Origin: Candidatus Methanophagaceae archaeon GoMg1
GTDB lineage: Archaea > Halobacteriota > Syntropharchaeia > Alkanophagales > Methanospirareceae
Reading direction: 5' to 3'
NCBI GenBank assembly: GCA_013180605.1
Contig: QBUL01000187.1
Coordinates: forward strand, 1-55,689
Length of the DNA stretch: 55,689 nucleotides
Below, one piece after another: positions 10,794-38,005 of this stretch. Below the pieces are notes generated by a model. That model did no database searches, had not been told where the DNA came from, and saw nothing but the letters and a program-made list of their open reading frames with translations. Both the position numbers and the translations under genes were made by a program. Positions within the stretch are counted from its first letter, which is position 1. Each line of letters opens with the position of its first letter.

Positions 10794-10906
10794 TGTATAT
10801 ACGAAGTACTTCAGATATACTGCCAAAAGGGAAGGATATACGAAATTCGTATATACCTCCAAATTGGAATGATATGCGATGTATTGCGGATATAACTAAG
10901 TTAAAC
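10794..10906 (+). other. attI-like site, type A copy 1
   Basis: Repeated (G/T)ATAT(A/G)C-type boxes ending in GTTAAAC at 10900; aligns with 37926-38005 on the minus strand. Confidence 0.65.
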
Positions 10907-10998
10907 TCAATCGAGAAAGAGGGCTAAAATTAAATGGGGGACAAAAATTAGAAAATGTAAACAAAGTTATATAAATTAGAAAATAATCTTAATTTATT

Positions 10999-12132
10999 AT
11001 GAAAGATGCAGATGAATTTTATAAACCTGCGATTAAGCAAAAAGTATTAATTGATGGAATTGCAGGCGAAACAATAGCAAAAGGCTCTACAGGAAAAATA
11101 ATTCAAAAAGGATTTCTGACTTCAGTTCAAACTAATTTTGCTTCTATTGCTAACAATCTAACATCTACTTTTTATTCGTATAATTCAAAAGATTTAGTTA
11201 ATAGTTCATTAATTATTATCAAAAAGGATAATACTGCAAAAATATACTCTAAATTTCCTTTATCTATGTTAATGAGAGCTAAGAAAGATATTAAAAAGGG
11301 AACATTAGTAAATAGAGAAGATATTTTTGATATTGCAAAACTTGAATTTAAGGATTCTGTTTACGAAGTTAACATTGAAGCTGACGATAAAATCATCTTT
11401 ATTTTTAGGATGGATTGGAAATTCGGCATATTTTTTGACTTCACTAAAAAAATAGATTCGGGAAAATTGAAAGAAGAGTTAGGTTATTGTTATAAGCGTT
11501 TATTTTTTTATGATTTGTACGCATTTCTTGAAAATGAAAATTATTTCAATGATTTAAGAGCGGATGGATGGTTTCCATTTATAAGAATTATTGGAAGAAA
11601 TTTTGATACGATAATGCAATACTACAAAGAAGACAAAAAACATGACTTCCAAATTGATGAATTAATCTCAGAATTCACAAAAGAAAAAATTGAATCATTT
11701 ACACAATATTGGTGGAAAAAACAATTATTTAATGATAAGAAAGGAATCATTGAAGCAGGAATTAATTCTTTTTTACAAAATGATAAAAATGGATTTATTA
11801 CATGTTTACATACACTTTATCCTCAAATAGAAGGAATTATGGGTTTTGATTATTTTAATGTCAATGGCAAAAAACCTTCATTTAGAGAACTTATAGACCA
11901 TATAAAACAAAAAGCAGAGTCTAAATTTAACACAGTTTCATCAACAGGATTTCCTACGGAATTTTATGAATATCTAAAAAAGACTGTTTTTGAAAATTTT
12001 GATCTTGCAACAGGAAAGGTTGATTTATCTAGACACACAACATCCCATGGATATGCTAATGCAGATGATTTTAACAAGGCGAAAGCACTCCAAGCAATTC
12101 TAATTTTAGACCAAATATACTTCTATTTGTAA
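10999..12132 (+). CDS. Cassette-borne protein with C-terminal HEPN-like motif
   Basis: IEG...SRHTTSHG (Rx4H); AT-rich; bounded by a GTT core and attC. Confidence 0.65.
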   Translation: MKDADEFYKPAIKQKVLIDGIAGETIAKGSTGKIIQKGFLTSVQTNFASIANNLTSTFYSYNSKDLVNSSLIIIKKDNTAKIYSKFPLSMLMRAKKDIKKGTLVNREDIFDIAKLEFKDSVYEVNIEADDKIIFIFRMDWKFGIFFDFTKKIDSGKLKEELGYCYKRLFFYDLYAFLENENYFNDLRADGWFPFIRIIGRNFDTIMQYYKEDKKHDFQIDELISEFTKEKIESFTQYWWKKQLFNDKKGIIEAGINSFLQNDKNGFITCLHTLYPQIEGIMGFDYFNVNGKKPSFRELIDHIKQKAESKFNTVSSTGFPTEFYEYLKKTVFENFDLATGKVDLSRHTTSHGYANADDFNKAKALQAILILDQIYFYL

Positions 12133-12252
12133 TTTTTGTCCCATCGATTTAGTTCTTTATGTATCGCATTCGCTCTTTAGATAGAACGCCCTCTTTCTCG
12201 ACTTTGATTTTTCCCTTCGGGACGTTGCACTAAAAATCAATCCTAACGGAGA

Positions 12253-12342
12253 GTTCAACAGGGATTATGAGGTTACGAAGTCTTGCAGACTTCTCCACCC
12301 AAATTCGCCTAAGGCGAACTTCTCATAATCCTGATGTTAAGC
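12253..12342 (+). other. attC-like site
   Basis: GTTCAAC (RYYYAAC) to GTTAAGC (GTTRRRY); arms GGATTATGAG and CTCATAATCC. Confidence 0.75.
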
Positions 12343-12508
12343 AAAATTAAAAAGATACAGGAAGAATCAACGTATGAACTCAAAAATCATCATTACTTTG
12401 TCAGCTTTTGTTTACAGGCTTTGTATTTTTTTGATTTAACTTTTGCACTTTGCACTTTTCATTTTGCGTTGTCTGCTCAAAAATCCACCGATTTTTTAGC
12501 AGATACGG

Positions 12509-13210
12509 TCATTGTAACACCACTCTCGCATCCACTGCCACTGCCCCCTCTTCATAAACCAAAAGGGGGTTTATTTCTATTTCTTTTATCTCTTCTATCT
12601 CCAGTAAGACCTCAGACAGCTTCATAACGGTGGATGCCAGTTTCTCTATGTCAACCGGCTTCGAACCTCTGAATCCTGTCAACAGTGGGTAACTCTTTAC
12701 CTCTCGCATCATATCAAAAACCTCTTCTCTGTCCAGCGGTGCAAGCCTGAAGCTCACGTCCTTCACGAGTTCCACGGCAATGCCCCCTGTGCCGAACATA
12801 ACAGCAGGACCAAATTGCGGGTCCCTCAAGCCCCCTATTATCAGCTCTATACCCGTGGGGACGGTCTCCTCTAAAAGAAAACCCGCTATCCTTGCCTTTG
12901 GTGCTTTTTCTGCAAGATTCTTCTTCAGCTCCCTCAAGGCAACGCTCGCTTCTTCGCTGTCTTTTATACCTGTTATTACCCCACCAAACTCCCTTTTATG
13001 AAGGATGTCTTGCGATACCACTTTGAGAACAAGAGGAGGAGTAATCTCCTTTGATTTTATTGCCACATCATCCAGCCCTTCGACCAAAACCGATTTGGGC
13101 ACCTGTATGCCCCATGCAGATACCAGTGCTTTCGCCTCCGGCTCAAAGAGGGCTTGCCTGCCTGCGTTTAAGGCATTAATGACGAGCTTTTTAGCTTCTT
13201 CTTTGTTCAT
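12509..13210 (-). CDS. acdB: ADP-forming acyl/acetyl-CoA synthetase beta (ATP-grasp) subunit
   Basis: LKVVSQDILHK, RDPQFGPAVMFGTGG, EIEINPL and AVDARV motifs. Confidence 0.9.
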   Translation of the reverse strand: MNKEEAKKLVINALNAGRQALFEPEAKALVSAWGIQVPKSVLVEGLDDVAIKSKEITPPLVLKVVSQDILHKREFGGVITGIKDSEEASVALRELKKNLAEKAPKARIAGFLLEETVPTGIELIIGGLRDPQFGPAVMFGTGGIAVELVKDVSFRLAPLDREEVFDMMREVKSYPLLTGFRGSKPVDIEKLASTVMKLSEVLLEIEEIKEIEINPLLVYEEGAVAVDARVVLQ

Positions 13211-13343
13211 TGTACATAAAGTATAACTTCCTTATATTTAAGACGCAGATTAACACGGATTTACGCGGATTTTAAGTTTAATTTTAATATTGTTGATTGT
13301 TGATCTTTATCATCTGTGTTAATCTGCGTTAATCTGTGTCAAT
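13211..13343. repeat. Empty GxxExxY-associated inverted-repeat element
   Basis: gacgcagattaacacggatttacgcggatt ... atctgtgttaatctgcgttaatctgtgtc with a conserved flank abutting the acdB ATG. Confidence 0.8.
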
Positions 13344-13356
13344 AAATAAAAAAAAT

Positions 13357-13395: not shown

Positions 13396-13456
13396 CGCAC
13401 GATCAGGGCAATATGGTTATGTTTAGCATACTTCTGTATTAGTAGGAGACCAACCA

Positions 13457-14950: not shown

Positions 14951-15215
14951 TTAGTTGTCCAGCGGGCTGCGGACAACGAGAACGTTCCTCGTAGCTACAG
15001 GGGTACAGATCATAGTGTCAAGTTTTGATGACTCAGGAGTTTCTGAATCGTCCTGATGACATAACCATTTTCCAATAAATGTGTCGGGAAGCTATGTCTT
15101 AGTGTATGAACAAAGGCATTTTTCGTAATGCCTGCTTTTTCAACCACGGTTTTGGAAGCCATCTGCGGTGATGCCAAGTGTACATGGTAACGGCTGACCG
15201 TAAGGAATTTTAATG
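14951..15215 (-). pseudogene. intI: Integron integrase C-terminal remnant
   Basis: [41 protein letters not shown], then frameshift to [21 protein letters not shown]. The catalytic Tyr position reads Cys and the N-terminus is missing. Confidence 0.88.
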
Positions 15216-15351
15216 GTAAAAAAGGATAAAAGCCTCCTGTTTTATGTAATAAAAGTAATAAAAGACGTAGGTGGACATAGAGCACGAGATGAGTTTATGA
15301 TAGTCTTAAGAGGTATTGCCAAATTAATTGCTACAGTTATTTATATGCAAG

Positions 15352-15390: not shown

Positions 15391-15399
15391 GAAAATAAT

Positions 15400-19023: not shown

Positions 19024-20250
19024 TTACCCCTTTCCGGCTATCCCCTTCAATCTCGCCATTTCCTTCCATTCTGTCTCTGTATATAGAAGTTGAGATGTTT
19101 TCTCCCCTTCTCCCTCCACACCCCTAACCTTAATCATATTATCAAAGATGAACTCAAACTCTCCAGGGCTTATGTTTTTTCCACCAAGACCACCAATAAA
19201 AGATAGCAAGTGAGGCCTCTGTTTCTCATTATATAGGCAACTGGCAATCTCCGAATGCAGAATGCCGCCCTTGCCTATGCTGATGTTCTGGTCTATGACC
19301 GCTACAGCCCTCCTCCCTTTAAGTGCACCCGTTATATCCTCCACTGGAAATGGTCTTATGAGCCTCAACCTCAAAAGCCCTGCCTTTATTCCCCTTTCTC
19401 GTGCTTTATTCACTGCAGCCTTTCCGAGCGTGGAAAATGAGTTGGTCATAACGAGAACATATTTGGCATCCTCCAGCATATAGCCTTCTATGGTATCATA
19501 GTTTCGGCCAAACTCCTTTTCAAATTTCCCACATACCTCTTTGTAGACATTCAGCGCATTTTGACTTGCCAGATGCATCTGGTATTTGAAATAAGAATAC
19601 ATTGACCCGCCAAGGACTGCCACGCCCTGGGCCATGGGTTGACTTGCCTTGAAGAAAGCATGTCTTGGCTGGTAAGGCGGCAGAAACTTCCTAACCGTCT
19701 CCAACTCGGGCACCTCTACGGGTTCCCTGGTAAACGAAAGATAAAACCCATCCATATTCACAATAACCGGTAGAAGCACCTGCTCGTCCTCTACCAATCT
19801 GTATGCCATCAGTAGAGAATCTAAAACCTCCTGGCAGGTCTCACAGTGTATCTGCAAAAATCCCGAATCCCTCGCTGCGAGTACATCGTTATGATCTGGT
19901 TCGAGAGTAATCGGTGAAGACAATCCCCTCGATACATTGACCATCACCAGAGGGACTCGCCATCCTGCCACTGTATAGAGCATCTCAAAACCATACATAA
20001 GCCCTTGACTCGATGTAGCTGTAAAAGCCCTCACCCCGGTAGCAGAAGCAGCCCCTGCTGCTGTAATCATAGAATGTTCTGAGTCCATTGTAACGAGCTT
20101 GCTATCCATATCCCCATCAGATATCCATTTTGCCAATGTCTCGATAATCTCTGTCTGTGGAGTTACAGGGTAGACTGGAATATAATCCACCTCTGCTAAT
20201 CTCACTCCCCATGCAGCCGCTGCATTGCCAGTGAGCATCTCTCTTTCCAT
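19024..20250 (-). CDS. porA: 2-oxoacid:ferredoxin oxidoreductase alpha subunit
   Basis: YPVTPQT, SEHS, TATSSQGL and GGLGG motifs. Confidence 0.9.
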   Translation of the reverse strand: MEREMLTGNAAAAWGVRLAEVDYIPVYPVTPQTEIIETLAKWISDGDMDSKLVTMDSEHSMITAAGAASATGVRAFTATSSQGLMYGFEMLYTVAGWRVPLVMVNVSRGLSSPITLEPDHNDVLAARDSGFLQIHCETCQEVLDSLLMAYRLVEDEQVLLPVIVNMDGFYLSFTREPVEVPELETVRKFLPPYQPRHAFFKASQPMAQGVAVLGGSMYSYFKYQMHLASQNALNVYKEVCGKFEKEFGRNYDTIEGYMLEDAKYVLVMTNSFSTLGKAAVNKARERGIKAGLLRLRLIRPFPVEDITGALKGRRAVAVIDQNISIGKGGILHSEIASCLYNEKQRPHLLSFIGGLGGKNISPGEFEFIFDNMIKVRGVEGEGEKTSQLLYTETEWKEMARLKGIAGKG

Positions 20251-20495
20251 TGTACATAAAGTATAACTTCTACCTATAAATTTAATTTAGGACGCAGATT
20301 TACGCGGATTTACGCAGAAGACTATTTCCTCAAGTTATCAAATGCCTTACGTTTATTATAAACTCGATAGAAGATTCTAATAATCTCCTCCGTCAATTCC
20401 TTATATTTAAAATCCTGATTATCCGCTTTCATCTGCGTCCGATTATAAAAATTATTCTTTCTTGTCTGCGTTAATCAGTGTTAATCTGTGTCTAT
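20251..20495. mobile_element. GxxExxY-associated inverted-repeat element containing a gene remnant
   Basis: Same 10-bp-period arms and flank as at 13211 and 22467. Confidence 0.8.
20322..20432 (-). pseudogene. GxxExxY protein with central deletion
   Basis: MKADNQDFKYKELTEEIIRIFYRVYNK joined to RKAFDNLRK*, i.e. the family's N- and C-termini as I recall them. Confidence 0.75.
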
Positions 20496-20514
20496 AATTT
20501 ATTTTTCCCCTTTT

Positions 20515-21423
20515 TTATTTTCCGATCACCTTCTTAGCATGAACCTCCCTTATCTTCTCCAATGTCTTTGTGGGACATTCCTCAACACATATCAGACAGC
20601 CCTTACAGTTATCGTAATCGGTATATGGAAAGCCGTCTTCATTTACTAAAATACAACCATCAGGACATCTGGCAACGCAGATCATACACCTGGTGCAGGC
20701 ATCGTAATTCCAGACAGGTCTAAATACACGCCAGTTGCCTGTTCTTCGCAAGGGGGTATTGCCGGTAGCGTTTAGAGCAGGACTGGAGACCCCGGCAGTC
20801 TCGAACGGCATAGTGATAACCCCGCTTCCTTTTTGGATGACCTCGGCAGTTTTTAGTTCTACTGGTGGGATGGCATTAAAACAATACAGAGATGCCTCTA
20901 TGTTCTTCTCTATAAGAACTCTGTCTGTTACAATCTCAGATATCACCTTCTCCACAGCTTCCTTTAAAGAATCCTCTCGAAGACCAGCAATCTTGGAGGC
21001 AACAGCACCTGCAAGCGAGCTTAGGATTGTCCTTTCCAGTATATCAAGGCAAATCTTTGTTATATCCAGTGTTATAATCTGTCCTGAAATCTTATACTCA
21101 GCCCTCGCCTCCTCCGGACTTTGAGGGGTGTTGATAAACACGATGCCACCCTTTTTAAGCCCCGATACAGGCATTATCCGGGGATCATACAAGAGGGTTT
21201 TGTCCATCACGATCACAATATCTGGCTCTGATATCACTCCTCGTTCCATGATGGGTTCTTCAGATATGCGTGTGAAGGCAGCTATCGGTGCACCCCTCCT
21301 CTCGGCACCATACAACGGGAAGTCCTGAGCATAGTAGCCTTCCAAAAATGCTGCAGTCCCCAGCACTCTGCTGGCAACTTTCACCCCCTGACCACCCCTG
21401 CCGTGGAATCTCAACCTGAGCAT
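20515..21423 (-). CDS. 2-oxoacid:ferredoxin oxidoreductase fused gamma-delta subunit
   Basis: FHGRGGQG and YGAERRGAP; C-terminal 2x[4Fe-4S] CTRCMICVARCP and CKGCLICVEECP. Confidence 0.9.
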   Translation of the reverse strand: MLRLRFHGRGGQGVKVASRVLGTAAFLEGYYAQDFPLYGAERRGAPIAAFTRISEEPIMERGVISEPDIVIVMDKTLLYDPRIMPVSGLKKGGIVFINTPQSPEEARAEYKISGQIITLDITKICLDILERTILSSLAGAVASKIAGLREDSLKEAVEKVISEIVTDRVLIEKNIEASLYCFNAIPPVELKTAEVIQKGSGVITMPFETAGVSSPALNATGNTPLRRTGNWRVFRPVWNYDACTRCMICVARCPDGCILVNEDGFPYTDYDNCKGCLICVEECPTKTLEKIREVHAKKVIGK

Positions 21424-21438
21424 TTTAGAAATAGAAAC

Positions 21439-22437: not shown

Positions 22438-22466
22438 GTTATCTCCCCTCCTGTATGTTTTATTTT

Positions 22467-22593
22467 TGTGTATAAACTATAACTTCATTCTATTTAAGAC
22501 ACTGATTTACACGGATTTTTTCTTTCTTTTGCTGGGCTGGGCTAACGGCATTAATCTTTTCATCTGTGTTAATCTGCGTTAATCTGCGTCAAT
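22467..22593. repeat. Empty GxxExxY-associated element
   Basis: tataaactataacttc..tatttaagacactgatttacacggatt ... atctgtgttaatctgcgttaatctgcgtc. Confidence 0.8.
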
Positions 22594-22707
22594 ATTTTAT
22601 TTTCTATTTTCTTGTAAGTAATTTTATTATATTTATAAATGTTGCTTTTTTGATTTAAAACTTTTTCGAATACCTTTTCACAAAAGGAGAACTCATGTAC
22701 CTCATTT

Positions 22708-24911: not shown

Positions 24912-25012
24912 TTTTCCCTAGTTTTCCCCACGCCTTTTAATTTATATCCGTGATGCCGTGGCTCAAATTATCTCTTTTGAATATAGTGCTTGCAGAATAT
25001 TTAAACCTTTTG

Positions 25013-27330: not shown

Positions 27331-27421
27331 TTCTTCGACTTGACAGAACAAATTAGAAATTAAACGGTTCCTTTAAAAATTTATTTAGTGGGAGCGTGAA
27401 CAGATAAAAAGAGAAACGAGA

Positions 27422-29983
27422 ATGGAAAAAGAGGGTTTTCTACTGGACATTGATTATGTAACGGAGAGAGACGATACAGGGAACGAAAAGCCGGTGATAC
27501 GACTATGGTGCAAGAGCAAAGAAGGAGAGGTTTTTGTTGTGTTAGACAAAAGTTTCGAGCCGTATTTTTACGCCTTTCTACATTCTCATTTCCATTCTTA
27601 CCCCTACCGAGATATTGAAGAAACTAAGGGAGTGGTGGAAAAAATCCGAGTGGATAGAGGAGACGAACAAATAAGCGTTAAGCGAGTGGAATTTTGCCAG
27701 AAGAAATTACTTGGTGTTGAACAGAAAGGGTTAAAGATTTATGCCGAACATCCGAGACACGTTCCGCTGCTGCGAGAGGCAGTCAAAAAAGCAGGTCTTA
27801 CCGTGCTTGAAGCGGACATTCTATTTGCCATTCGGTACTTGATAGACAAACAACTGAGACCTTTTGATGGCATAAACGTGATGGGCAAAGAAATAAAATT
27901 GGACTATGCCAATACGGCTATTCTTGCCTCGGACATATCGTACAAAAAAATGGGCGGCGGGGGTGACCTGCCAGCGCTAAAAATCCTCGCTTTTGACTGC
28001 GAAATGGCTACGCTGAGCGGGTATGGAATGCCATCGCCGAAAAGCGACCCGATAACAATCATTTCGGCTGCATACACCGAAGGTATAGGAAAAGAAGTCA
28101 AAGCAAAGCTCTTCATGATGGAAGAAGAGGGATGGACGGAAAAGGGGGATAAAAAAGTAATAACCGATTTTTTGAACTTTGTAGCGCAATTCCAGCCGGA
28201 TGTTATCGTGGGCTATAATTCTGACGCTTTTGACTGGCAGTACATAAGGGAACGTGCGAAAATGCACAGGATTCGTTTAACCGTCGGTGTGGATGGCAGC
28301 ACGGTGCAGTATGACAAGGAGAGGGGAGGTGCGTTGCCCGGGGTGAACATCACGGGGCGGCTGAACGTTGACCTTTTCAAACTCGCAAAGCGCGACTTAA
28401 GCAGCGTGAAAGTGAAGAAACTGGAAAATGTAGCCGAATACCTTGGCGTGATGAAGAAAATCGAGAGAGTAAATTTAACGCCACGTGAGATTACCGACTA
28501 CTGGGTTGACGCTTCGCCGTCGTCTGCCGCGCGACAGCAGTTATACGAATACGCAAAGGCGGATGCAGTCAGCACGCTGGGCATCGCGGAGAAGATGCTG
28601 CCACTGCAAATAGAACTTTCTAAGATGATCGGCTATCCTCTGGACGAGGTAGCAAAGATGGGCCGGGGCAGGCAGGTAGAAGCGTTTTTAACCGCAGAAG
28701 CATTCAAAAAAGGCGAACTGGTGCCACCAAAGCGAGGAGCAGAAAAGACCTTCGAGGGTGGATTCGTACTCCCTCCGGAAAAGGGCTTGCACGAGAATGT
28801 TATCGCCCTTGACTTCTCTTCTATGTACCCCACCATCATGATTTCCTTTAACATCTCCCCTGATACATTCGTAGAAGCCCGGGGTGCGAGTGCAGAACCT
28901 GAATCGGATTTACATATCGCACCGGAGGTGGGCTATGCATTCAGAAAAACGCCGGATGGATTCTTTAAACGAATAATGAGCGATTTGATCGCACGAAGAA
29001 GAGCGATAAAGGCGGAAATGAAGAACCACGACAAAAATTCCGACAAATATCTGTTGCTGGACATACAACAGCAGAGTATCAAAATCCTCACGAACAGCTT
29101 CTATGGATATACGGGATGGAGCGCAGCGAAATTTTACAAGCGCGAATGCGCTGAAGCGACAACGGCATGGGGACGGCATTTTATAAAGCGCACGGTGGAG
29201 GTAGCGGAGAAGCTCGGATTTGAGGTTATCTATGGAGATACCGACAGCATATTCGCGAAACTCCCACTCACGCCTGATGCGGCGGCAAAAGAAGGAGATA
29301 TAAAAGCGGCGACGTGGGATAAAGCGAGAGAAGTTTCAGCGCGTATTTCCGAGGAGCTTCCACTTGAACTCGAGATACAGGACTTCTTTAAAGCTATTTT
29401 CTTTACGGGGAAGAAGAAGAGATACGCAGCGCTTACCGACAAAGGCGAGATCATAGTGCGTGGCCTGGAAGTGCGCCGCGGGGACTGGTGCGAGCTGGCG
29501 AAGGAAGTGCAGACGGAGGTGATAGAACTCATATTAAAACAAAAAGACCCTGAAGCTGCTATGAAATATGCCAAAACCGTCATACAGGACGTAAAAGAGG
29601 GAAAAATATCCGTAGACAAGTTAACGATTTACAAGACGCTCACCAGAAAGATAAGCAGCTATGAGACAAAGCAAGCGCACGTTATGGCGGCAGAAAGAGC
29701 TTTAACTTCGTCCTCGCGCATTGTATACGAAGTTGGCTCGAAAATCCCGTATGTGATAATAAAAGGCGCAGGGAAGACGAGCGACCGTGCATTCCCCGTG
29801 GATGTTATAGAGAGAAGCGAAGGGGACGAAATAACAGCAGAGGGGCGAGCATACCAGATTGACTGCTCGTATTACGTCCAGCATCAGCTGATACCGGTTG
29901 CGCACCGAGTGCTGCAACTTTTTGGCTATGACCTCTCTTCTTTTGATGATATGCGCCAGAAGACATTAGGTCATTGGTTTTGA
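27422..29983 (+). CDS. polB: Family B DNA polymerase
   Basis: Exo motifs FDCE, YNSDAFD, YAKADA; Pol motifs DFSSMYP, KILTNSFYG, YGDTDS; no intein. Confidence 0.96.
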   Translation: MEKEGFLLDIDYVTERDDTGNEKPVIRLWCKSKEGEVFVVLDKSFEPYFYAFLHSHFHSYPYRDIEETKGVVEKIRVDRGDEQISVKRVEFCQKKLLGVEQKGLKIYAEHPRHVPLLREAVKKAGLTVLEADILFAIRYLIDKQLRPFDGINVMGKEIKLDYANTAILASDISYKKMGGGGDLPALKILAFDCEMATLSGYGMPSPKSDPITIISAAYTEGIGKEVKAKLFMMEEEGWTEKGDKKVITDFLNFVAQFQPDVIVGYNSDAFDWQYIRERAKMHRIRLTVGVDGSTVQYDKERGGALPGVNITGRLNVDLFKLAKRDLSSVKVKKLENVAEYLGVMKKIERVNLTPREITDYWVDASPSSAARQQLYEYAKADAVSTLGIAEKMLPLQIELSKMIGYPLDEVAKMGRGRQVEAFLTAEAFKKGELVPPKRGAEKTFEGGFVLPPEKGLHENVIALDFSSMYPTIMISFNISPDTFVEARGASAEPESDLHIAPEVGYAFRKTPDGFFKRIMSDLIARRRAIKAEMKNHDKNSDKYLLLDIQQQSIKILTNSFYGYTGWSAAKFYKRECAEATTAWGRHFIKRTVEVAEKLGFEVIYGDTDSIFAKLPLTPDAAAKEGDIKAATWDKAREVSARISEELPLELEIQDFFKAIFFTGKKKRYAALTDKGEIIVRGLEVRRGDWCELAKEVQTEVIELILKQKDPEAAMKYAKTVIQDVKEGKISVDKLTIYKTLTRKISSYETKQAHVMAAERALTSSSRIVYEVGSKIPYVIIKGAGKTSDRAFPVDVIERSEGDEITAEGRAYQIDCSYYVQHQLIPVAHRVLQLFGYDLSSFDDMRQKTLGHWF

Positions 29984-30006
29984 TAGTGTTTTAGAGGTCA
30001 TACAAC

Positions 30007-30022
30007 CGAAAAGCTTATATAC
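30007..30022 (+). promoter_or_regulatory. BRE/TATA promoter of the histone gene
   Basis: cgaaaagcTTATATA about 35 nt upstream of ATG 30054. Confidence 0.6.
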
Positions 30023-30053
30023 CCCTTTGTATTATGTAATCACAGTGATAGAA

Positions 30054-30254
30054 ATGGCTGAAATACCAACAGCACCTGTAACCAGGTTAATGAGAAACGC
30101 CGGAGCAGAGAGAGTAAGCGAAGATGCGAGTCAGGCATTGGTAGAGGTATTAGAAGAATATGGCGAAAAAATAGCGGCAAAATCCGTTAGCCTCGCCAAA
30201 CATGCCGGAAGGAAGACAGTGAAGGCCGAAGACGTCTTGGAAGCAGTAGCATAG
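30054..30254 (+). CDS. Archaeal histone (HMf-like)
   Basis: MAEIPTAPVTRLMRNAGAERVS...AKHAGRKTVKAED. Confidence 0.95.
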   Translation: MAEIPTAPVTRLMRNAGAERVSEDASQALVEVLEEYGEKIAAKSVSLAKHAGRKTVKAEDVLEAVA

Positions 30255-30316
30255 AAAAAAAGCAGAATAAAGGGGAACTATAAAACATACAAAATTCACC
30301 CTTTTTTTTTTTTTTT

Positions 30317-31094
<778 letters not shown>

Positions 31095-31098
<4 letters not shown>

Positions 31099-32120
31099 AC
31101 ACCTCCTTTCCTTTTCTTTACCAGTAAAACAAAACTAATAAAGAGTGCAAAAGCTGCAGATAAAGTTTCAAAGCCCGGTGCCTTCGGTACTGGAGTGGGA
31201 TAAGGCATAGGCATAGGGGCTGGTGCGCTTGGACGAATAAAATCAGTAATTTCTACCGTGGGTGAAATTTCTACCGTCTTCTCTTTCGCTTCTACTACTA
31301 CCGTTCTGTTCACAAAAGGACTTAATAGAACCATCCCACTGCTCTCTTTTATTATCCTTTCTGATTGCCATATTTGAATCTCAAATATGTAATCCCTACC
31401 ATTAAGCACCCTTAGCTCTGCGTAATGTAGCGATGTAGTGCCTTCTTTTAGAACCCCGAGGTCTTCCCACCCCATATCTGCTATTAACCTCGTTTCGTTG
31501 TCCCTCGCCTTTATCAAAGCTCTCAGACCGCCAACATCTTTTCCGAGATTGTCAATGTATAGAGTGGTATTGACGGTTGCATACTCCTTCTCTTTCCCCA
31601 TTCCGCTCTCTACTTCTACTGCTTCCACGAAGAAATCAAGTTCCCGTATGGAAATTTTTGCAACAGAAGGAGGTTCCAAACGTGATAATCCATAAATCTT
31701 TCTTTCTCCCCGCAATATGCCTTTGCCGTCTTCAAAAACAACTATTTGCAGTCGATAGCCGCCTTCTTTTGGAAGTTTCAAGTACGTGTTCGCATATTTT
31801 GTCTCTCTTCCGTCTATTTCCCCCACTTTCGACCCATTAGAAGCTACGAGTAAATTTGTATCTGCATCGTATGCCTTTATCAACACATCCACTTCGCCGG
31901 ATTTCACATCTCCGCTATTATCCAGATACATGGTCACGTTTAGCATTACATCGGCAATACCAAGCGCTTCGGCAGATATGTCAATATCCGCGATTGCTAT
32001 TTCAGACTGCTCATAAGATTTTAAACCGCCGCCAATCGTTGCTACTAACGCAATAAGCACTAAGAACGCAAGCACTACCACAACTGTTGCAATTGTCAGT
32101 TGTTTTCCCTGCAAGTCCAT
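31095..32120 (-). CDS. Surface protein with PGF-CTERM sorting signal
   Basis: N-terminal TM, two repeated beta domains, Pro-rich linker and PGF-TM-KKRK tail. Confidence 0.85.
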
Positions 32121-32198
32121 AACATTTATTTATTTGTCCTCATTTATAAATATTTGTGCATTACTATTATTAGCGGGGCATATTGGAGGTAAGAAAAA

Positions 32199-32744
32199 AT
32201 GGCTGTCGTTGTATTTTTGGCTACGGGATTTGAAGAGATAGAAGCTATGGGTATTGTGGACACACTCAGAAGGGCGGGGATAGAGGTTGTGATTGCCGGT
32301 CTTCAAACGGGCGCTATCGAAGGCGGGCATGGAGTTAAGGTGGTTCCGGATAGAGAAATAGAAGGGATTAATATCAAGGATTTTGATGCGGTCGTTTTGC
32401 CTGGTGGGTCTCCCGGGTACGTGAATCTGGGTAACGACAAACGCGTTTTGGATGCGGTGAGAAAAGCATTTGAACTCGGTAAAGTCGTTGCAGCTATCTG
32501 TGCTGCACCTTCGGTATTAGCAAAAGCGGGGATTTTAGAGGGAAAAAAAGCGACGATTTATCCGGGTTTGGAAACCACTTTAGCCGGTGCAAAACACATC
32601 AATGAGCGAGTGGTAGTGGATGATAAGATAATCACCAGTCAGGGTCCGGGGACTACGCTCGAATTCGGCGTTAAACTGGTCGAGATATTAGCGGGAGTGA
32701 AGAGCGCACGCGAACTTAAGAATAGTCTCATAGCGAATTTTTAG
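32199..32744 (+). CDS. DJ-1/PfpI/ThiJ family protein
   Basis: GFEEIE, LPGG, AAICAAP and TSQGPGT motifs. Confidence 0.93.
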   Translation: MAVVVFLATGFEEIEAMGIVDTLRRAGIEVVIAGLQTGAIEGGHGVKVVPDREIEGINIKDFDAVVLPGGSPGYVNLGNDKRVLDAVRKAFELGKVVAAICAAPSVLAKAGILEGKKATIYPGLETTLAGAKHINERVVVDDKIITSQGPGTTLEFGVKLVEILAGVKSARELKNSLIANF

Positions 32745-32754
32745 ACTGGCTGTT

Positions 32755-32904
32755 TCATCGAGCGAAATAGCGTTGAAAAGGAGGGTAGAGAAACCAGAGG
32801 AAATGGGTGCGGATGCGGTCGTGAATCTTCAGTTTATGACTTCGATGGTGATGACTGGTGCCGCGGAAATACTTGCACACGGGACTGTGGTGAAGTTAAG
32901 GTGA
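32755..32904 (+). pseudogene. YbjQ/UPF0145 C-terminal remnant
   Basis: EIALKR.VEK.EEMGADAVVNL.F.TSMVMTGAAEILAHGTVVKL*. Confidence 0.75.
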
Positions 32905-32935
32905 AGTAAGATAAAAAATTAAAAAAGGAGGATAA

Positions 32936-33544
32936 TTAATATCCTCCAAATCTTGGTCCGAGTTCGGGTATTAGTTCCGGCATTGTAATAAGTGCAGCAA
33001 AGACCACTATAGCGGCAACGATTCCCGGTATGATTATTGCGAGAATAAACGCGAGAACTGCTTTTCCAGTGGATAGCTCGTGAAGTTGCCTTATGCCGAT
33101 GATTTCCACAACAAGAGCCCATATTCCTGCAATGATGCCTATAAATGGAATCCATCCCAATAGGTAGCTCGGCGTCGCTCCGTACATCAATGCCTTTATG
33201 GTCTGCGTTACTCCTTTTCTACCGCCCACAACATATACCCAGATGTGCATCCAGAGACCCATAATGAAAACAGCAATTATCCCGGCGATTAACGACAAAA
33301 CAAGCATGGATACCGCAAGAAGAGGCCCCGCAGTAAGCCCCAGCATCGCAGCCCACGGTCCTACTATCCATGCCATCGCCGAAAATGCTACCAACACCAT
33401 GATACTGAAAAGCACTGCATATATCGCTAAAAGGACGACGAAATACTTGAAGGCATCGCCGAGTGTGTCTTCCTTAGAGTTGTCGAACGTTTTTGAAGGA
33501 CTGAACAAGAATCCCTTTATTCTTTCCCTGGTACTTAACACCAT
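32936..33544 (-). CDS. YIP1 family membrane protein
   Basis: LFSPSKTF, YGATP and GIRQLH.LSTGKA motifs; multi-TM. Confidence 0.8.
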   Translation of the reverse strand: MVLSTRERIKGFLFSPSKTFDNSKEDTLGDAFKYFVVLLAIYAVLFSIMVLVAFSAMAWIVGPWAAMLGLTAGPLLAVSMLVLSLIAGIIAVFIMGLWMHIWVYVVGGRKGVTQTIKALMYGATPSYLLGWIPFIGIIAGIWALVVEIIGIRQLHELSTGKAVLAFILAIIIPGIVAAIVVFAALITMPELIPELGPRFGGY

Positions 33545-34530: not shown

Positions 34531-35337
34531 ATGTCCGGTTATAAAGACAAAATACTGTTCGCAAAAAATCCTAATGAATACATAAACGACTCACAGCGAG
34601 CACGAGCAACCAGTTTCTATTCCTCTATCTGTGCGACTTATGGGAAAACAAACCTTGAATCATTAATGAAAACAAAGAGAAAAGGGAAAAAATATCCTGA
34701 CCCATTGGCTGATTTACCGATAGCTTGCCACAAGGATTTTGGCGATTATAATAAAAGAAGGGCAGAGCTCTTTGAGAAAGGGAGAAAATGGTTCGATGGT
34801 AGAGTTGCTAACTGGGCAAAAAATCCTGAAATCCCTGAGCTCAACTTTCCTTCGCTCAAAGTGAAATATCCAGAAGGCAAGAAGTTCGAATTCGGTAATA
34901 CCTCACTTCGATTCAGTAAACCTCTGTTTCATGGCATAGAGTTCTCACGCGTGGGTTGGGTATTTTATACGATTGTGGAGCACGAAACCGAGAAATTTAT
35001 CCATTCTTCTGACCTTGACGGTCCTATAATCGAGGATTATGCGCAGCAAATAATCCATGAGAATCCTCAGGTGCTTATCCTGGATGGTCCTATGACCTAC
35101 ATGTTTGGCTATTTGCTGAACCGGATTAATTTAAACCGGGCAGTGGAGAATGCCGCAGAAATTGTGCGTGAAATTGATGCGGAATTGATTATTTACGACC
35201 ATCACTTGCCAAGAGATAGAAAATTTCGCGAAAGGACTGAAAAGGTGTGGAACACAGCAAAGGAAGCGAAGAAGAAAGTTATGACTGCGGCGGAATTTTT
35301 GGGTAAGGAACCGGTTGTGCTTTCAGTAGGGTCTTAA
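34531..35337 (+). CDS. MBL-fold hydrolase (UPF0282-like), probably 5'-truncated
   Basis: KNPNEYINDSQR.R, PLFHG, SSDLDGP and DHHL.RD motifs; N-terminal MBL motif absent. Confidence 0.65.
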   Translation: MSGYKDKILFAKNPNEYINDSQRARATSFYSSICATYGKTNLESLMKTKRKGKKYPDPLADLPIACHKDFGDYNKRRAELFEKGRKWFDGRVANWAKNPEIPELNFPSLKVKYPEGKKFEFGNTSLRFSKPLFHGIEFSRVGWVFYTIVEHETEKFIHSSDLDGPIIEDYAQQIIHENPQVLILDGPMTYMFGYLLNRINLNRAVENAAEIVREIDAELIIYDHHLPRDRKFRERTEKVWNTAKEAKKKVMTAAEFLGKEPVVLSVGS

Positions 35338-35369
35338 TAGCTGTGCTCGAAAGCGGTGTTGGTTCTGGG

Positions 35370-35457
35370 TTATAACATTTTGAGTATATCTAAAGTTCCG
35401 AGCGAAGCGAGGATTTTGGGTGAGGGCGTAGCCCGAACCTGATATACTCTGTTGGCC
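35370..35457 (-). other. attC-like site (GATATAC type)
   Basis: Minus strand GGCCAAC-AGAGTATATC ... GATATACTCAAAAT-GTTATAA. Confidence 0.75.
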
Positions 35458-35508
35458 GACCCGAAGGGCAAGGGAGCGATAGCGACCGCAGAGTCGTGGA
35501 CGAAAGTT

Positions 35509-36273
35509 TTACGGTTCTTCATCTAATATCTTTATCCTACTTCCTAAGTCTTTTAAATACCCTTCAGCTTTTTTCTCATCTTGTGGTAGATTTTCCGGGT
35601 CTAATGGGAATATATCTGTCAATAATTTCGCTAATCCCGATGCTTGATATCCTTTTTGAACAAAAACCGCAACATTTTTACCTGGTCCACTCTTAAATGC
35701 CATACCTATCTCATTTCCAATCCAGCCGACCTCACCTCCTTTATCAAAAACATGAGCGGTCAAAATCTGGATAATGCAATCAGAATCACGGATTGCTTGA
35801 TCTATTTTGTCAATCGTTGGTTTAACTTTGTAAATTTCTTTTTGCCATATGGTATTAAATCCTGCATTCTCAGCTCTATTCCTAACCCATCTAATCAATT
35901 GATTTGCACCATCATCGAAAGAAGCACTAATGAATGCAATAGGCTGTTTTGCCTTTTTTCTTTTTTCTATGTATACATCTTTTTCTTCTCTTTCCCTTGC
36001 TTTGAGAATATCTATACCATCTGCTGTTATTTTTAGACCAAGAGAGAGGTCAAATGGAAACGAACCAAATGGTAATGGGATTTCTACTCTAACTTCTTTC
36101 TTCTCTAAAAGCTTATGATCCTCTAGATATTTTATTTCTCTGTCAAACTTATCTGGGTTTTTATTTGATAAAAGGGCCAACAGACTGCTTTTTCTCAACG
36201 ATTTTGGATATTTTCCGTCGAGAAGGTTAAGCATTTCATAGTGATATTCAGTCAGTTTCATTTGTACCACCAA
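35509..36273 (-). CDS. Cassette-borne wHTH plus TIR/nucleotide-hydrolase-like protein
   Basis: N-terminal LKITADGID wHTH; AFISASF, AIRDSDCIIQIL and WIGNEIGMA motifs. Confidence 0.7.
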   Translation of the reverse strand: MVVQMKLTEYHYEMLNLLDGKYPKSLRKSSLLALLSNKNPDKFDREIKYLEDHKLLEKKEVRVEIPLPFGSFPFDLSLGLKITADGIDILKAREREEKDVYIEKRKKAKQPIAFISASFDDGANQLIRWVRNRAENAGFNTIWQKEIYKVKPTIDKIDQAIRDSDCIIQILTAHVFDKGGEVGWIGNEIGMAFKSGPGKNVAVFVQKGYQASGLAKLLTDIFPLDPENLPQDEKKAEGYLKDLGSRIKILDEEP

Positions 36274-36318
36274 AGTTTTGAATTACTTTTTTTGAAGATT
36301 TTCTTCGTCCACGATTTC

Positions 36319-36403
36319 GGCTACCGTTTTTGGTATATCCGAAGTTTTTGCCGATAGGCAAAAATTTGGGCGAACGACATGAGCCAGATATACCATGTTA
36401 TAC
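36319..36403 (-). other. attC-like site (GATATAC type)
   Basis: Minus strand GTATAAC-ATGGTATATC ... GATATACCAAAAAC-GGTAGCC (GTT core reads GGT). Confidence 0.72.
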
Positions 36404-36509
36404 GCCCCCGCTAGGGACAAGGAGCGGAGCGACGAAGAGTCGTGAGCAAAAGGCCATTTTAACTTACGAAGCATCTATTTTTTGGTGCGTATCTGCTTTT
36501 ATCTGGGCA

Positions 36510-36596
36510 ATACCCTGTGGCTTGCCACAGGGTCGCAGCAGTAGTGGTTGGTATATGGATATTGATACCCTGCGGCTTGCCGCAGGGTTCTTCATT
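36510..36596. mobile_element. Twin-palindrome miniature element (IS200/IS605- or REP-like)
   Basis: ACCCTGTGGCTTGCCACAGGGT and ACCCTGCGGCTTGCCGCAGGGT, 55 bp apart. Confidence 0.7.
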
Positions 36597-36622
36597 GGAA
36601 GATCCTCCTCTCGCGTTTTTTA

Positions 36623-37852
36623 TTATCTTACATAAAGAAATTTATCGTATTGCTTAAACAAATCTGGATATTGTTGATAGAAGAGGTACTTATTGAACTG
36701 AATTCCCAAGAATGTCTTTTGAAGTGGCAATCCCTTTTGACTCCTGAGCATTGCTAGGAGTTTAACGTTGGGTATCTGCGTTCTTTTATATATGGATCGC
36801 ATCCGCATTTCTAGATTTGAACTAGCCTTTTGATTATCTAGTCGGGAGTTATATCCGCTTTCCGAACCTTTCGGGTATATAGTAAAGTCAGGCAATGGGC
36901 ATCGTAGCCATGGTTCCATACAGAAGGAAGAGTCGAAATCCTTTCGTTTTACGGTTCTAATAATTTTTTTTCCTATCGAAGGAATGGGTATAAGCGAAGG
37001 TAATAGGTTTATGATATTTTGAGTATATATTGCAACGGAAATGGACGTGGAAACCACCGCAATGTTCTCCCATTGCTTTCTAATTGTTTGCTTCACCTTC
37101 TCACTAATAAGGGGCATTTCCTCTATAAGGTTTCTTGAGGTCCGTGCTCCGTTATTCCAAGCTCGTGCTAATTTCTCGCGATACGTATGCATTTCAGAGA
37201 TATCCTCTAGTTCAATAATCCTTTTGAACAGGTTTTGCTCAATTCTTTTTCGGAGACTCGGTATTAGAGTACAGGAGTCAGGAATATGAGAAAAAAACCA
37301 ATGTCCAAGTAATTCTCTTACTTTACGCACACTATAATTCCCCTCCAATCCTGGCTCGCGTAACGTTAGGGAAGATAACCATAAAGTAGTGTACGTTGGA
37401 AACACTAAACACGCTTCGAGTTCTACAGCGGTTCCCCATCTAGCGTAGGCCTCCAGTGTTACTCCAAAATCAAAACCAAACGGTATCACGTAGGAAAGCT
37501 CTTCATCCTCTAAAACACAAGGAAGCTCTTCTTTTAGGACGTCATACAAAGCACAATAAACACGGTTCTTTCTAGCTTGGCCTAACTCCCAGAATCTATC
37601 AGAGCAAAACTCTACAAACTCAAGGTTGCATATTTCCCTTGGTAGTGAAGATTCTGTTGACTCCGGGAATAATATAGACTCAAAACCATGGAAAATATGT
37701 AAATCTTGTAGATACTTTACACACAATCTTGCGTCTCTGGTTTTATCAATATTGTAATCCCCAGTATCAATTAGGTTATACCGAAGAAGAGGTCCGGCTT
37801 TCCGGTAATCTTTCATCAATCTTATTGGGATTGTGTTAAGTATTGCTCTCAT
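36623..37852 (-). CDS. Cassette-borne hypothetical protein (409 aa)
   Basis: Long ORF with ggggtgg SD; no family recognised. Confidence 0.7.
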   Translation of the reverse strand: MRAILNTIPIRLMKDYRKAGPLLRYNLIDTGDYNIDKTRDARLCVKYLQDLHIFHGFESILFPESTESSLPREICNLEFVEFCSDRFWELGQARKNRVYCALYDVLKEELPCVLEDEELSYVIPFGFDFGVTLEAYARWGTAVELEACLVFPTYTTLWLSSLTLREPGLEGNYSVRKVRELLGHWFFSHIPDSCTLIPSLRKRIEQNLFKRIIELEDISEMHTYREKLARAWNNGARTSRNLIEEMPLISEKVKQTIRKQWENIAVVSTSISVAIYTQNIINLLPSLIPIPSIGKKIIRTVKRKDFDSSFCMEPWLRCPLPDFTIYPKGSESGYNSRLDNQKASSNLEMRMRSIYKRTQIPNVKLLAMLRSQKGLPLQKTFLGIQFNKYLFYQQYPDLFKQYDKFLYVR

Positions 37853-37925
37853 GTATTACCACCCCTCAGTTACACTTCATTTCTATAACATTAACTTCTT
37901 TCCTAAGCCTTTTGCTCACGATTGC

Positions 37926-38005
37926 GTATAACGTCGGTATATCCGACATTAATGTCGCATATCCTCCCATTTTGGGGTTATATCCAAAACTTACTTCGTA
38001 GATCC
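37926..38005 (-). other. attI-like site, type A copy 2
   Basis: GGATATAACCCCAAAATGGGAGGATATGCGAC..CGGATATACCGAC-GTTATAC aligns with about 10850-10906. Confidence 0.65.

Follow-up and report, generated by a model that had tools for sequence, protein, structure and literature searches.

Two loci, A and B, in the window (the whole 55,689-nucleotide stretch of DNA analysed here) are probably integrons in decay that belong to a non-canonical archaeal family, which consists of small cassette arrays and occurs in ANME-1 (Methanophagales) and its neighbours, 'decayed' being drawn from the minority of sites that keep integrase remnants. The system is also found in methane- and alkane-oxidising archaea neighbouring ANME-1. 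In the proposed model, a complete unit would comprise, on one strand, a tyrosine recombinase gene, an attI site about 90-130 nt further on and then one or more cassettes. By analogy with bacterial integrons, cassettes would be excised as circles through attC x attC or attI x attC exchange and inserted at attI between G and TT, and the recombinase genes beside the sites would here have been deleted or broken, leaving attI and cassettes behind. The sites with their structure, the cassette junctions, the tie to a recombinase gene and the exchange of cargo between relatives are seen in the sequences; the chemistry, the recombining strand, the box-binding factor and present-day activity are inferred. 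The original prediction had described dispersed integron-like loci with attC-like hairpins, and the sites, folds and junctions bear this out, with small arrays scattered over many contigs; it had also taken the conserved sites for purpose-built solitary landing pads, which they do not appear to be, since 3'-end remnants of integrase genes adjoin sites (at locus B and on contigs C1 and C140) and intact units exist in relatives. As the sites sit behind the ends of co-oriented integrase genes, the pads look like integrons that have lost their integrase.

The docking site and the folded cassette ends

Both loci open, at the positions originally predicted, with a near-identical non-coding site belonging to a family of direct GATATRC boxes that end at GTT, about 85-110 nt in length (Table 1). 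The copy at locus A is a longer, 'double' version of the site compared with that at locus B. A 30-nt core, GATATNNNNCYAAAANGGNNGGATATRCGA, is exact in both; the window holds no further copy with up to 2 mismatches allowed, and none of 100 shuffled controls gave any match. Likeness had been thought to stop at the GTT. It continues for about 25 bases (GTTA.AC.CAATCG.GA..A..GGC), because the cassettes of the two loci have related 5' ends.

Table 1. Features of the two loci in the window
Feature	Positions	Strand	Details
Left part of the block absent from G386	10663-10791	+	last ~40 nt correspond to the double-type spacer between integrase stop and attI
attI-like site, locus A (double type)	10792-10902	+	box GTATATACGAAGTA, two units of GATAT-box / CCAAA / GATATRCGA, last box, GTT at 10900-10902
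Exact core, locus A	10814-10843	+	30 nt
Cassette A	10901-12336	+	1436 bp; one ORF, 10999-12132, 377 aa
attC-like site, cassette A	12249-12344	+	covariance-model match; R'' GTTCAAC, R' GTTAAGC, G at 12336
attC-like site, cassette B2	35461-35368	-	covariance-model match; followed by flank GTTATAACCCAGAACC
Cassette B2	35376-36324	-	949 bp; one ORF, 36273-35509, 254 aa, TIR_2 domain
attC-like site, cassette B1	36407-36317	-	covariance-model match
Cassette B1	36325-37931	-	1607 bp; one ORF, 37852-36623, 409 aa, no family
attI-like site, locus B (single type)	38013-37930	-	GTT at 37932-37930
Exact core, locus B	37984-37955	-	30 nt
Integrase remnant, locus B	38026-38097	-	last ~23 codons, ..KSPLGLIMKNSYIESEAEGDEG, then stop
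Polymorphic segment	38098-38770	-	673 bp; two small ORFs, 125 and 82 aa, no family

When the profile scan suggested with the original prediction was carried out, the attI-like site and the attC type were both found to recur in the genome and in relatives. The site is present in five copies in the genome, more than the two first seen; the fifth, on contig C157, has no attC behind it, and its downstream sequence is identical in 3 genomes. A pattern search through a sample of 400 genomes of the phylum found the exact core at 28 places in 16 of them, the reversed pattern giving no match in the same sample. In a species collection the core is present in 36 stretches, titled mostly Methanophagales, Methanolliviera, Methanosarcinales or Methanoperedens, and metagenomes contain the site in at least 120 stretches. 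Among 43 distinct sites that were aligned, beyond the searched pattern, TATACGAAGTA and the final GGATATACC box are common to them, and most have the GTT end; five double-type sites could be aligned together with the spacer between the integrase stop codon and attI.

As predicted, all three hairpins in the window contain CCCAAA, then a hairpin, then (A)ACTT, and folded as single-stranded DNA they reach z values of -2.2 to -4.9 against shuffles. The GATATAC box forms the inner stem in two of the three; genome-wide the stem sequence varies, with pairing kept. A covariance model built from 14 sites of the genome finds 26 sites on 17 contigs (the 14 training sites and 12 new ones), all with AAC...GTT-type ends. 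The predicted fold is a three-way junction: AAC is followed by a 12-bp stem, a variable hairpin, the unpaired CCCAAA and a second hairpin, and the 3' half continues with AACTT, the return strand of the stem, 4-6 unpaired bases and G|TT. In the alignment of the 14 sites, both partners change in 13 of the 18 predicted pairs without loss of pairing, so that by our own model the sites have the R''-L''...L'-R' arrangement of attC, its AAC...GTT ends and a structure that is kept while the sequence varies. Of 150 genomes from the phylum, 35 contain matches to the model, and a few families hold most of them. The matches are scattered: the closed 1.1-Mb genome G006 has 11, of which the 6 listed span 63 kb to 1,065 kb. 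In 80 metagenome loci the model has 80 matches: 69 are downstream of attI and 9 upstream of it, both groups on the attI strand, and the last 2 are on the opposite strand. The 9 upstream matches are not predicted by a simple integron model.

Both ends could be placed for 11 cassettes. In 10 of these, the first 9 bases of the cassette fit the complement of its own R'' more closely than the R' physically next to it does, and the remaining one is a tie (one-sided sign test, p = 0.001), in a comparison that rests on few variable positions because R'' and R' are strongly conserved (TATAAC and GTTATA). In cassette B1 these 9 bases are wholly complementary to its own R''. Pairing of a cassette's start with its own far end is an integron signature that points to insertion at G|TT, and the conserved site behaves as the attI that had been proposed, with its crossover at this point. 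The encoded protein of cassette A belongs to no Pfam or PADLOC family, and that of B2 matches TIR_2 with E 3.8e-7 and 31.1 bits (cut-off 28). Among the genes carried across the system are those for a reverse transcriptase of DRT8-like type (E 1e-160), an ATPase of AriAB-like type and a TIR protein. Locus B, where 0.95 kb separates two attC-like sites and an intact integrase is lacking, falls within the definition of a CALIN (at least 2 attC, less than 4 kb apart, integrase not nearby), whereas locus A, having one attC only, falls outside it; unlike CALINs, the loci here keep attI and an integrase stub.

Integrase remnants and their intact relatives

The original prediction saw no recombinase gene adjacent to the sites. 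This is correct for an intact gene, but 3'-end remnants do adjoin them. At locus B the remnant resembles closely the C-terminal end of the intact metagenome integrases P0002 and P0003. The C140 copy likewise keeps the last ~23 integrase codons upstream, and the C1 copy has PF00589 fragments directly upstream on the same strand, from a frameshifted and internally deleted gene. An intact integrase gene accompanied by the site had been sought, with the site expected in front of the gene; such genes do occur in relatives, rarely, and it is the gene that precedes the site, attI starting about 90-130 nt past the integrase stop codon on the same strand. Thus, attI adjoins the integrase gene and has a G|TT insertion point, in a downstream and co-oriented position. 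Genome G266 has an intact 346-aa integrase gene followed by a variant site, with the contig ending at GTTA, and the integrase genes of metagenome loci L177 and L189 look intact. Of the metagenome sites, 28 have 1100 nt or more of sequence upstream; 2 of these have an intact gene together with the site and 22 have no integrase similarity at E <= 1e-3; an intact integrase frame was found beside none of 64 sites with readable upstream sequence. Integrases of this type are multi-copy and mostly degraded. The subtype of attI follows that of the integrase tail, all 11 SPLDLIMK tails being accompanied by a site of the CAYTRATG-spacer type, and this tracking of the adjacent remnant argues for an origin in cis.

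Because the window holds integrase remnants only, the enzyme was studied in the intact relatives P0003, P0002, P0045 and P0104. It scores 252.6 bits (cut-off 220) with NF040815, the NCBIfam archaeal XerA model named 'site-specific tyrosine recombinase/integron integrase', and 235.2 bits with TIGR02249, below the cut-off of 265 and in two stretches. VchIntIA (2a3v) is the top fold match, with 33-35% identity. When the enzyme is aligned to it, query residues 243-272 face chain residues 170-241, a shortfall of about 40 residues at the position of the insertion; the enzyme thus lacks the additional, IntI-specific domain that a canonical integrase carries near patch III. The XerA structures 4a8e and 5hxy align with the enzyme from end to end. 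At its N-terminus lies an extra domain of about 64 residues with a HARP-like look, and its C-terminal ..KSPLD.. tail aligns with the C-terminus of IntI.

Turnover of cargo and rival explanations

Variable cargo behind the GTT at orthologous places had been anticipated, and genomes G000, G386 and G231 do differ there, the place compared being that between a dehydroquinate synthase gene and a 268-aa gene. The congener G386 carries at this locus one 3.6-kb three-ORF cassette, set between an attI and an end flank that match those found here, GTTATAACCCAGAACC being found behind its last attC as well. The 673-bp segment separates the integrase remnant from the 3-dehydroquinate synthase II gene; G386 and some metagenome contigs lack it at this place. 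The entire locus A block (remnant, site, cassette and attC) is lacking in G386, which suggests that the pad itself comes and goes. In some metagenome contigs, attI is joined to the flank behind the last attC, in the manner of an empty attI; the two sides of these joints are short (21 and 31 letters, matched at 88% likeness) and may have other DNA between them. For recombination of these sites by the integrase, the differing cassettes of congeners and the contig joints are indirect evidence.

The main rival holds that solitary attI pads are kept for their own sake at several places in the chromosome and all depend on a single recombinase acting in trans, its gene lying elsewhere in the cell or on a virus or plasmid. 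Most sites indeed lack an integrase while their boxes are intact across several families, the arrays are small and scattered both here and in G006, and contig C56 encodes an intact short tyrosine recombinase of 191 aa that has similar counterparts in many genomes of the family. We nevertheless regard this explanation as unlikely, as the remnants and the intact gene-plus-site units indicate that the pads derive from complete units, with attI subtypes that track the neighbouring remnant, and the whole of locus A, with its pad, has been inserted or deleted when compared with G386. Moreover, the attI of congeners is conserved to 88%, no better than the genes on either side (89-95%), and a search of a viral collection gave no match to the site. 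In decayed integrons, too, cassettes may still be moved by an enzyme made elsewhere. The genome, which is 86% complete, yielded no intact integrase of this type, a finding that speaks against the rival yet leaves room for service in trans.

Explanations that dispense with integrons fare worse. Inverted repeats of 9-25 nt at the cassette ends, and an integrase family scoring above the cut-off of the archaeal XerA model, could suggest small transposons or MITE-like elements with terminal inverted repeats, or elements that use dif-like sites through the host Xer. This is very improbable, given that adjacent units share a common boundary head to tail, contain no transposase, and show no target duplication at the edges of the locus A block, and that the docking site, with direct boxes and 5 copies per genome, is unlike dif. 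A terminal-inverted-repeat transposon or MITE was accordingly rejected on the missing target duplication and the head-to-tail boundaries, and XerA/dif chromosome dimer resolution on the 5 site copies, the direct boxes and the variable cargo behind them. Hardly credible at all is the idea that the hairpins and the site are expression signals (a terminator, an RNA stability element or a promoter module) or a small structured RNA: the hairpins lie in sense orientation behind ORFs and fold well on either strand, and the boxes are TATA-like, but the window has no match to Rfam families, the site is tied to a recombinase gene, whole cassettes are exchanged between the same attI and flank in congeners, and an expression signal gives no account of cassette starts that pair with their own distant ends.

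Relation to known integrons and implications

Integrons are a classic bacterial device for gathering and reshuffling genes. The archaeal loci resemble bacterial integrons in that a tyrosine recombinase gene adjoins an attI ending in GTT, the cassettes mostly consist of one ORF and a structured site with AAC...GTT ends and a covarying stem, the crossover is placed at G|TT by the pairing of cassette starts with their own R'', and the cargo is rich in anti-virus defence genes. In contrast to the bacterial systems, the enzyme lacks the ~40-residue IntI-specific insertion and has the additional HARP-like domain, and its gene lies upstream of attI on the same strand instead of divergently, which is unusual for bacteria. 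The attC sites also differ, forming a three-way junction with fixed unpaired CCCAAA and AACTT and a lopsided spacer (about 1 nt versus 4-6 nt unpaired), and many small scattered arrays take the place of one long array. Compared with archaeal XerA and dif, the latter described in the review PMC8371274 as a single-copy 11-6-11 inverted repeat (two 11-nt arms and a 6-nt spacer), the integrase passes NF040815 and aligns fully with XerA structures, but it has the extra N-terminal domain and an IntI-like tail and is multi-copy and mostly degraded, and its site consists of direct repeats, adjoins the gene and has variable cargo behind it.

Archaeal integrons were reported only in 2022, with six integrases, all of which have the IntI-specific domain according to the part of the paper available to us (Ghaly et al. 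2022, Sci Adv, PMC9668308). That part describes cassette arrays in archaeal metagenome-assembled genomes, mostly CALINs, and a putative attI immediately downstream of intI that is semi-conserved across phyla and has the canonical insertion point. It names Asgardarchaeota, Hadarchaeota, Hydrothermarchaeota, Korarchaeia, Nanoarchaeota, Thermoproteota, Aenigmatarchaeota and Methanobacteriota, and ANME-1, Methanoperedens and Halobacteriota are not among the groups named there. Compared by description, so that the sites may overlap, the position of attI downstream of the integrase gene at the present loci agrees with that account, whereas the enzyme studied here lacks the IntI-specific domain.

A bolder and tentative extension, to which we give less credence than to the decayed-integron reading itself, is that the loci represent a separate, so far undescribed integron class, common in ANME-1, Methanoliparia, Methanoperedens and GoM-Arc1. 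In it, a HARP-like junction-binding domain of the XerA-like recombinase might replace the IntI insertion in reading the folded three-way-junction attC, and the many orphan attI sites around the chromosome might still work as landing pads for an enzyme supplied in trans, making up a distributed platform for the exchange of defence genes.

The decayed-integron reading combines the same integron logic (a docking site, folded cassette sites, a G|TT crossover and defence cargo) with an enzyme that lacks the defining feature of IntI. Since integron integrases are recognised by this feature, a standard survey would overlook the enzyme and probably find too few of these loci, and the question arises whether the IntI insertion is truly needed for recombining folded DNA sites. 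A concrete attI sequence and an attC model are now available for anaerobic methane-oxidising archaea, and the system suggests how these uncultured organisms may swap anti-virus genes.

attI-like sites and folded cassette ends

The ANME-1 genome that holds the window (2.34 Mb in 189 contigs, 86% complete, 42.6% G+C; the window is its contig C113, which encodes an archaeal 3-dehydroquinate synthase II) carries, within the window, two near-identical attI-like sites, one at each of two integron-like loci, A with one cassette and B with cassettes B1 and B2, at the positions originally predicted. With up to 2 mismatches allowed, a 30-nt core pattern drawn from both sites has no match in the window apart from these two, and none in 100 shuffled versions of it. 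Similarity had been predicted to stop at the GTT; about 25 further bases are still alike, a consequence of the related 5' ends of the two cassettes. Nor does the site occur only twice, an outcome that had been named as speaking against the prediction: the genome has five copies, two in the window and one each on contigs C1, C140 and C157. In a sample of 400 phylum genomes, 16 have the exact core (28 places, five families), with no match in the same 400 genomes for the pattern read backwards as a control. It is also present in 36 stretches of a one-genome-per-species collection, with titles mostly naming Methanophagales, Methanolliviera, Methanosarcinales (GoM-Arc1) and Methanoperedens, and in at least 120 metagenome stretches; the viral collection gave no match. 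In an alignment of 43 distinct sites, bases outside the searched pattern are also conserved, and the consensus order is TATACGAAGTA, a spacer, a GATAT-box, CCAAAATGG, GGATATRCGA, a short palindromic spacer, GGATATACC, 3 nt and GTT, followed by about nine semi-conserved bases (ATA.GAAAT), beyond which there is no likeness. The arms of archaeal dif sites, which presumably resemble GATATA boxes, were also considered, an idea that we dropped.

Several arrangements of the site were seen in other genomes. In one (L013 / L057, G156:C10), the last attI box continues directly into CCCAAA, a hairpin, CTT and the return arm of an attC, and the site looks, by its sequence, like an attI/attC hybrid. Two tandem attI sites lie 3 kb apart in another (L040, G162:C68, at 3299-3328 and 6343-6372) and an attC end stands about 100 nt ahead of an attI in a third locus (L187); attI sites can therefore sit inside arrays. 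In the genus of the window, the attI lies just 3' of the 3-dehydroquinate synthase II gene (in the window and in L018 of the congener G386), and it has the same position in Methanolliviera (L009 / L055), a different family. The C-termini of the synthases are clearly unlike between the two, and the arrangement points to either an old shared location or a preferred insertion place.

Positions of features in the window
Feature	Position	Strand	Description
attI-like site, locus A	10792-10902, GTT 10900-10902	+	double type, longer than the locus B site
attI-like site, locus B	38013-37930, GTT 37932-37930	-	
Locus A block	~10663 to 12444		remnant, attI, cassette and attC
3-dehydroquinate synthase II gene	38771-39967		
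Segment next to locus B	38098-38770		673 bp, two small ORFs of no known family
Deletion variant in cassette B1	36501-36593		93 bp
Recombinase fragment	15010-15285	-	degraded
Intergenic repeat family	13190-13350, 1973-2047, 20240-20505, 22451-22615, 41024-41120, 53848-53956		tandem TTAATCTG(C/T)G units beside a conserved ~70-nt block
Second repeat family	4103-4315, 52939-53109, 55052-55107	both	..TTTAGCACAGGTTTTC TTTTTT..AAAAAGAAAA..
Direct repeats at window start	1-444		three, 120-nt spacing
Adjacent paralogous stretches	2192-2777 / 3208-3775		two, ~1 kb each, 71-79% alike

The three hairpins predicted in the window are real and mutually alike, as judged by alignment, a covariance model and folding, and the covariance model finds only those three there. 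When 14 attC-like sites of the genome are aligned, AAC, CCAAA and ACTT are invariant and pairing is kept through changes on both sides in 13 of 18 predicted pairs; each site is predicted to fold into a three-way junction, with a 12-bp stem on the outside, a pair of hairpins within and CCCAAA left unpaired. The model built from these 14 finds 26 sites on 17 contigs of the genome (E <= 0.01), 12 of them new, with ends of the TATAAC...GTTATA type, a few being degenerate (ATAAC, or GCT/GAT for GTT), and with CCCAAA exchanged for a small CCCTTCGGG hairpin in some. Matches at E <= 1e-5 were obtained in 35 of 150 sampled phylum genomes, where a few families dominate (positive genomes: 10/14 in f1, 6/7 in f18, 4/4 in f20, 3/3 in f12 and 3/4 in f13), and the families f7, f11, f14 and f15 of that sample gave none. 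The attC model was applied to 80 metagenome loci from a set of at least 120 (the rest enter only the subtype tabulation described below). Of its 80 hits, 69 share the strand of the attI and stand downstream of it, 9 share the strand but stand upstream, and the remaining 2 are on the opposite strand; at least one downstream attC is present in 42 of these 80 loci, at a median distance of 895 nt from the attI. One Methanolliviera contig has five attC sites behind a single attI, and the closed genome G006 has 11 attC matches, of which the 6 listed span 63 kb to 1,065 kb. A scan of the whole window with Rfam returned no family, and a tRNA scan of it no tRNA.

The window also holds other repeats. 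The stretch of about 150 nt around the first-listed copy of the intergenic family has dozens of matching places per genome in each of five congeners, and this family may be a promoter-region module or a MITE. Near-identical copies of the second family are present on at least 7 other contigs of the genome.

Cassette junctions, cargo and turnover

In integrons, recombination takes place between the G and the TT, and the start of a cassette is consequently complementary to the outer box R'' at its own far end. The complement of R'' was compared with the first 9 bases of the same cassette and with the 9 bases that physically follow its attC. Its own start matched better in 10 of the 11 cassettes with both ends defined, with 1 tie (p = 0.001, on few variable positions); for example, the match is 9/9 vs 5/9 for cassette B1 and 9/9 vs 6/9 for the C140 cassette, and in several cassettes the complementarity extends 15-25 bases further. 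By these matches, the cassettes carry the junction signature of integrons. As for their contents, two of the products in the window belong to no family and one is a TIR-domain protein, while a DRT8-like reverse transcriptase (E 1e-160) and an AriAB-like ATPase are encoded in cassettes elsewhere in the genome, a set that, from sequence likeness, fits defence-gene cargo. Contigs from two runs, each of a different study, show the 93-bp deletion variant with 120-letter sides; the deleted stretch belongs to the 3' untranslated part of cassette B1 and has a copy of a CCCTG.GGCAAGCC.CAGGGTAT hairpin on either side.

On its two sides, locus B has the gene for dehydroquinate synthase and one encoding 268 aa. 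Both genes recur in G386, as do the attI (88% identical) and the end flank, GTTATAAC.CAGAACC; what they enclose there is a single 3.6-kb cassette with three ORFs, without likeness to either cassette of the window, and the bases directly after the GTT differ among the genome of the window, G386 and the congener G231; cargo at an orthologous place is thus variable, as anticipated. In some contigs from public sediment and cold-seep runs, the attI is connected with the sequence that borders the last attC (35376 to 37937 and 35380 to 37921); locus B is missing altogether from others (35336 to 38775), and others are without the 673-bp segment, all through joints with short sides (21-47 letters) at a likeness threshold of 88%. 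This segment, which is absent at the place in G386 and has a copy of 96-98% identity on another contig of G231, looks from its distribution like a small mobile or recombined piece. Summed contig depth is far lower for the cassette bodies than for the flanks, attI and attC regions, in run X4, for instance, about 31-39 vs 20,000-33,000; this contrast was set aside as evidence, since the sum mixes organisms and repeats. At the place of locus A, the glutamate dehydrogenase and ATP-grasp genes abut in G386, where the block listed in the table is absent, and no target duplication was found at its edges in this comparison of window and G386; all genomes compared are MAGs, and their contigs often break in these repeats. 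By this indel, the pads themselves are gained or lost.

The integrase and its remnants

A Pfam search found five tyrosine-recombinase pieces in the genome. Two of them, immediately ahead of the C1 site and in its orientation, belong to a single gene that carries a frameshift and has lost an internal part; this gene ends ..KSPLDRL.., 65 nt ahead of the site. Locus B and the C140 site are both preceded by the last ~23 integrase codons (..KSPLGLIMKNSYIESEAEGDEG, then stop); at C157 a broken copy aligns with this 3' stretch, and upstream of locus A only the ~40-nt spacer common to double-type sites is recognisable. The claim that no recombinase is adjacent therefore needs to be restated: remnants adjoin the C1, C140 and locus B sites, and an intact cognate integrase was not found in this 86%-complete genome. 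The orphan sites may still be used in trans. The one intact short tyrosine recombinase of the genome (191 aa) has relatives that are widespread in the family. The window also holds a degraded recombinase fragment (PF00589, E 6e-10), the broken frame of which ends ..VRSPLDN. The next ~300 nt are rich in G+C and have no GATATRC site, and the fragment may be what is left of another type of integron. In L105 (contig C105 of the genome, ~8769-11728), one more integrase stub, with a single TGA, precedes two ORFs and an attC-like site, with no recognisable GATATRC attI between stub and attC-like site.

Intact homologues from metagenomes (P0003 and P0002) have 350-372 residues and a tail nearly as in the locus B remnant. 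With 252.6 bits they clear the cut-off of 220 of NF040815, an NCBIfam model named 'site-specific tyrosine recombinase/integron integrase'; against the integron-integrase model TIGR02249 they reach 235 bits, below the cut-off of 265, and match in two pieces. In comparison with VchIntIA, a solved bacterial integron integrase, they are without ~40 residues at the place of the IntI-specific insertion, whereas the alignment with archaeal XerA is continuous. An AlphaFold model (mean pLDDT 83) has its best fold matches in VchIntIA and XerA, and Foldseek with the whole model returned recombinases only. In the predicted structure, an extra domain is modelled with confidence over the first ~64 residues, with a weak Pfam match to HARP (E 0.023, below cut-off) and Atlas structural neighbours in HARP-bearing SNF2 proteins (TM 0.89-0.91 by query); as a lead from the model, this domain may be HARP-like. 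A plasmid search with P0003 gave bacterial homologues of 41-54% identity, named 'site-specific tyrosine recombinase/integron integrase' or TnpF.

In the family of 66 genomes, 51 have matches to the integrase, and among ~140 listed pieces nearly all are fragments, contain stop codons or lie at contig ends. An intact gene preceded by the site had been proposed as a check; in relatives, intact genes have the site downstream and not ahead of them. In G266, an intact gene of 346 aa comes before a site variant, the contig ending exactly at GTTA; the gene of G191 has a frameshift late in its reading frame, and behind it are a double-type site and a TPR-SIR2-like cargo gene. Translated frames revealed no intact integrase frame at any of 64 sites with readable upstream sequence, 2 more being too short upstream. 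For the 81 sites in the 80 metagenome loci, upstream sequence is too short in 53, and the remaining 28 comprise 2 intact-looking genes, 4 fragments and 22 without similarity at E <= 1e-3. Intact gene-plus-site units exist but are rare. In a rough tabulation, a CAYTRATG spacer is present in 11/11 sites behind an SPLDLIMK tail and in 0/18 behind an SPLD(R/S)LFE tail, 8 of these 18 being double sites; its fuzzy matching files a double site's second unit under 'single:other', and the pattern used recognises no SPLD remnant at 110 of the 164 sites. By this tabulation of sequences, the attI subtype appears to follow the integrase-tail subtype. Several of the counts given here depend on patterns defined for this analysis.

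A probable integron-like system of small, scattered units

Archaeal integrons have been described with six IntIs that have the IntI domain and with a putative attI immediately downstream of intI (Ghaly et al. 2022, PMC9668308). In the text passages of that paper on which the comparison is based, attI placement agrees with the ANME-1 loci, the enzyme differs from the one described here, and neither ANME-1 nor its relatives are named. The IntI insertion is described as 'not fully conserved' in an integron-like subgroup in the part of Smyshlyaev et al. 2021 consulted. No publication linking integrons with ANME-1, Methanophagales, Methanoperedens or Methanoliparia, or HARP with tyrosine recombinases, was found in the main texts of freely accessible literature. 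The system is rated as new as a variant of known integrons, set apart from that of Ghaly et al. 2022 on these text passages.

The sites and hairpins could be read as expression signals, and the cassettes as TIR transposons. Neither reading explains the evidence: as signals, the sites would leave the junction signature, the exchange of cassettes and the tie to a recombinase without a reason, and the same three are left over if the cassettes are TIR transposons. The simplest account of these sequences is an integron-like system, in which a complete unit would consist of integrase, attI and cassettes on one strand. The picture of solitary, dispersed landing pads stands insofar as arrays are small and scattered, as in G006, and gives way as to their origin: given the integrase remnants and the co-variation of attI and integrase subtypes, the pads would have begun as complete units, and on the simplest account the window holds two units whose integrase is lost.
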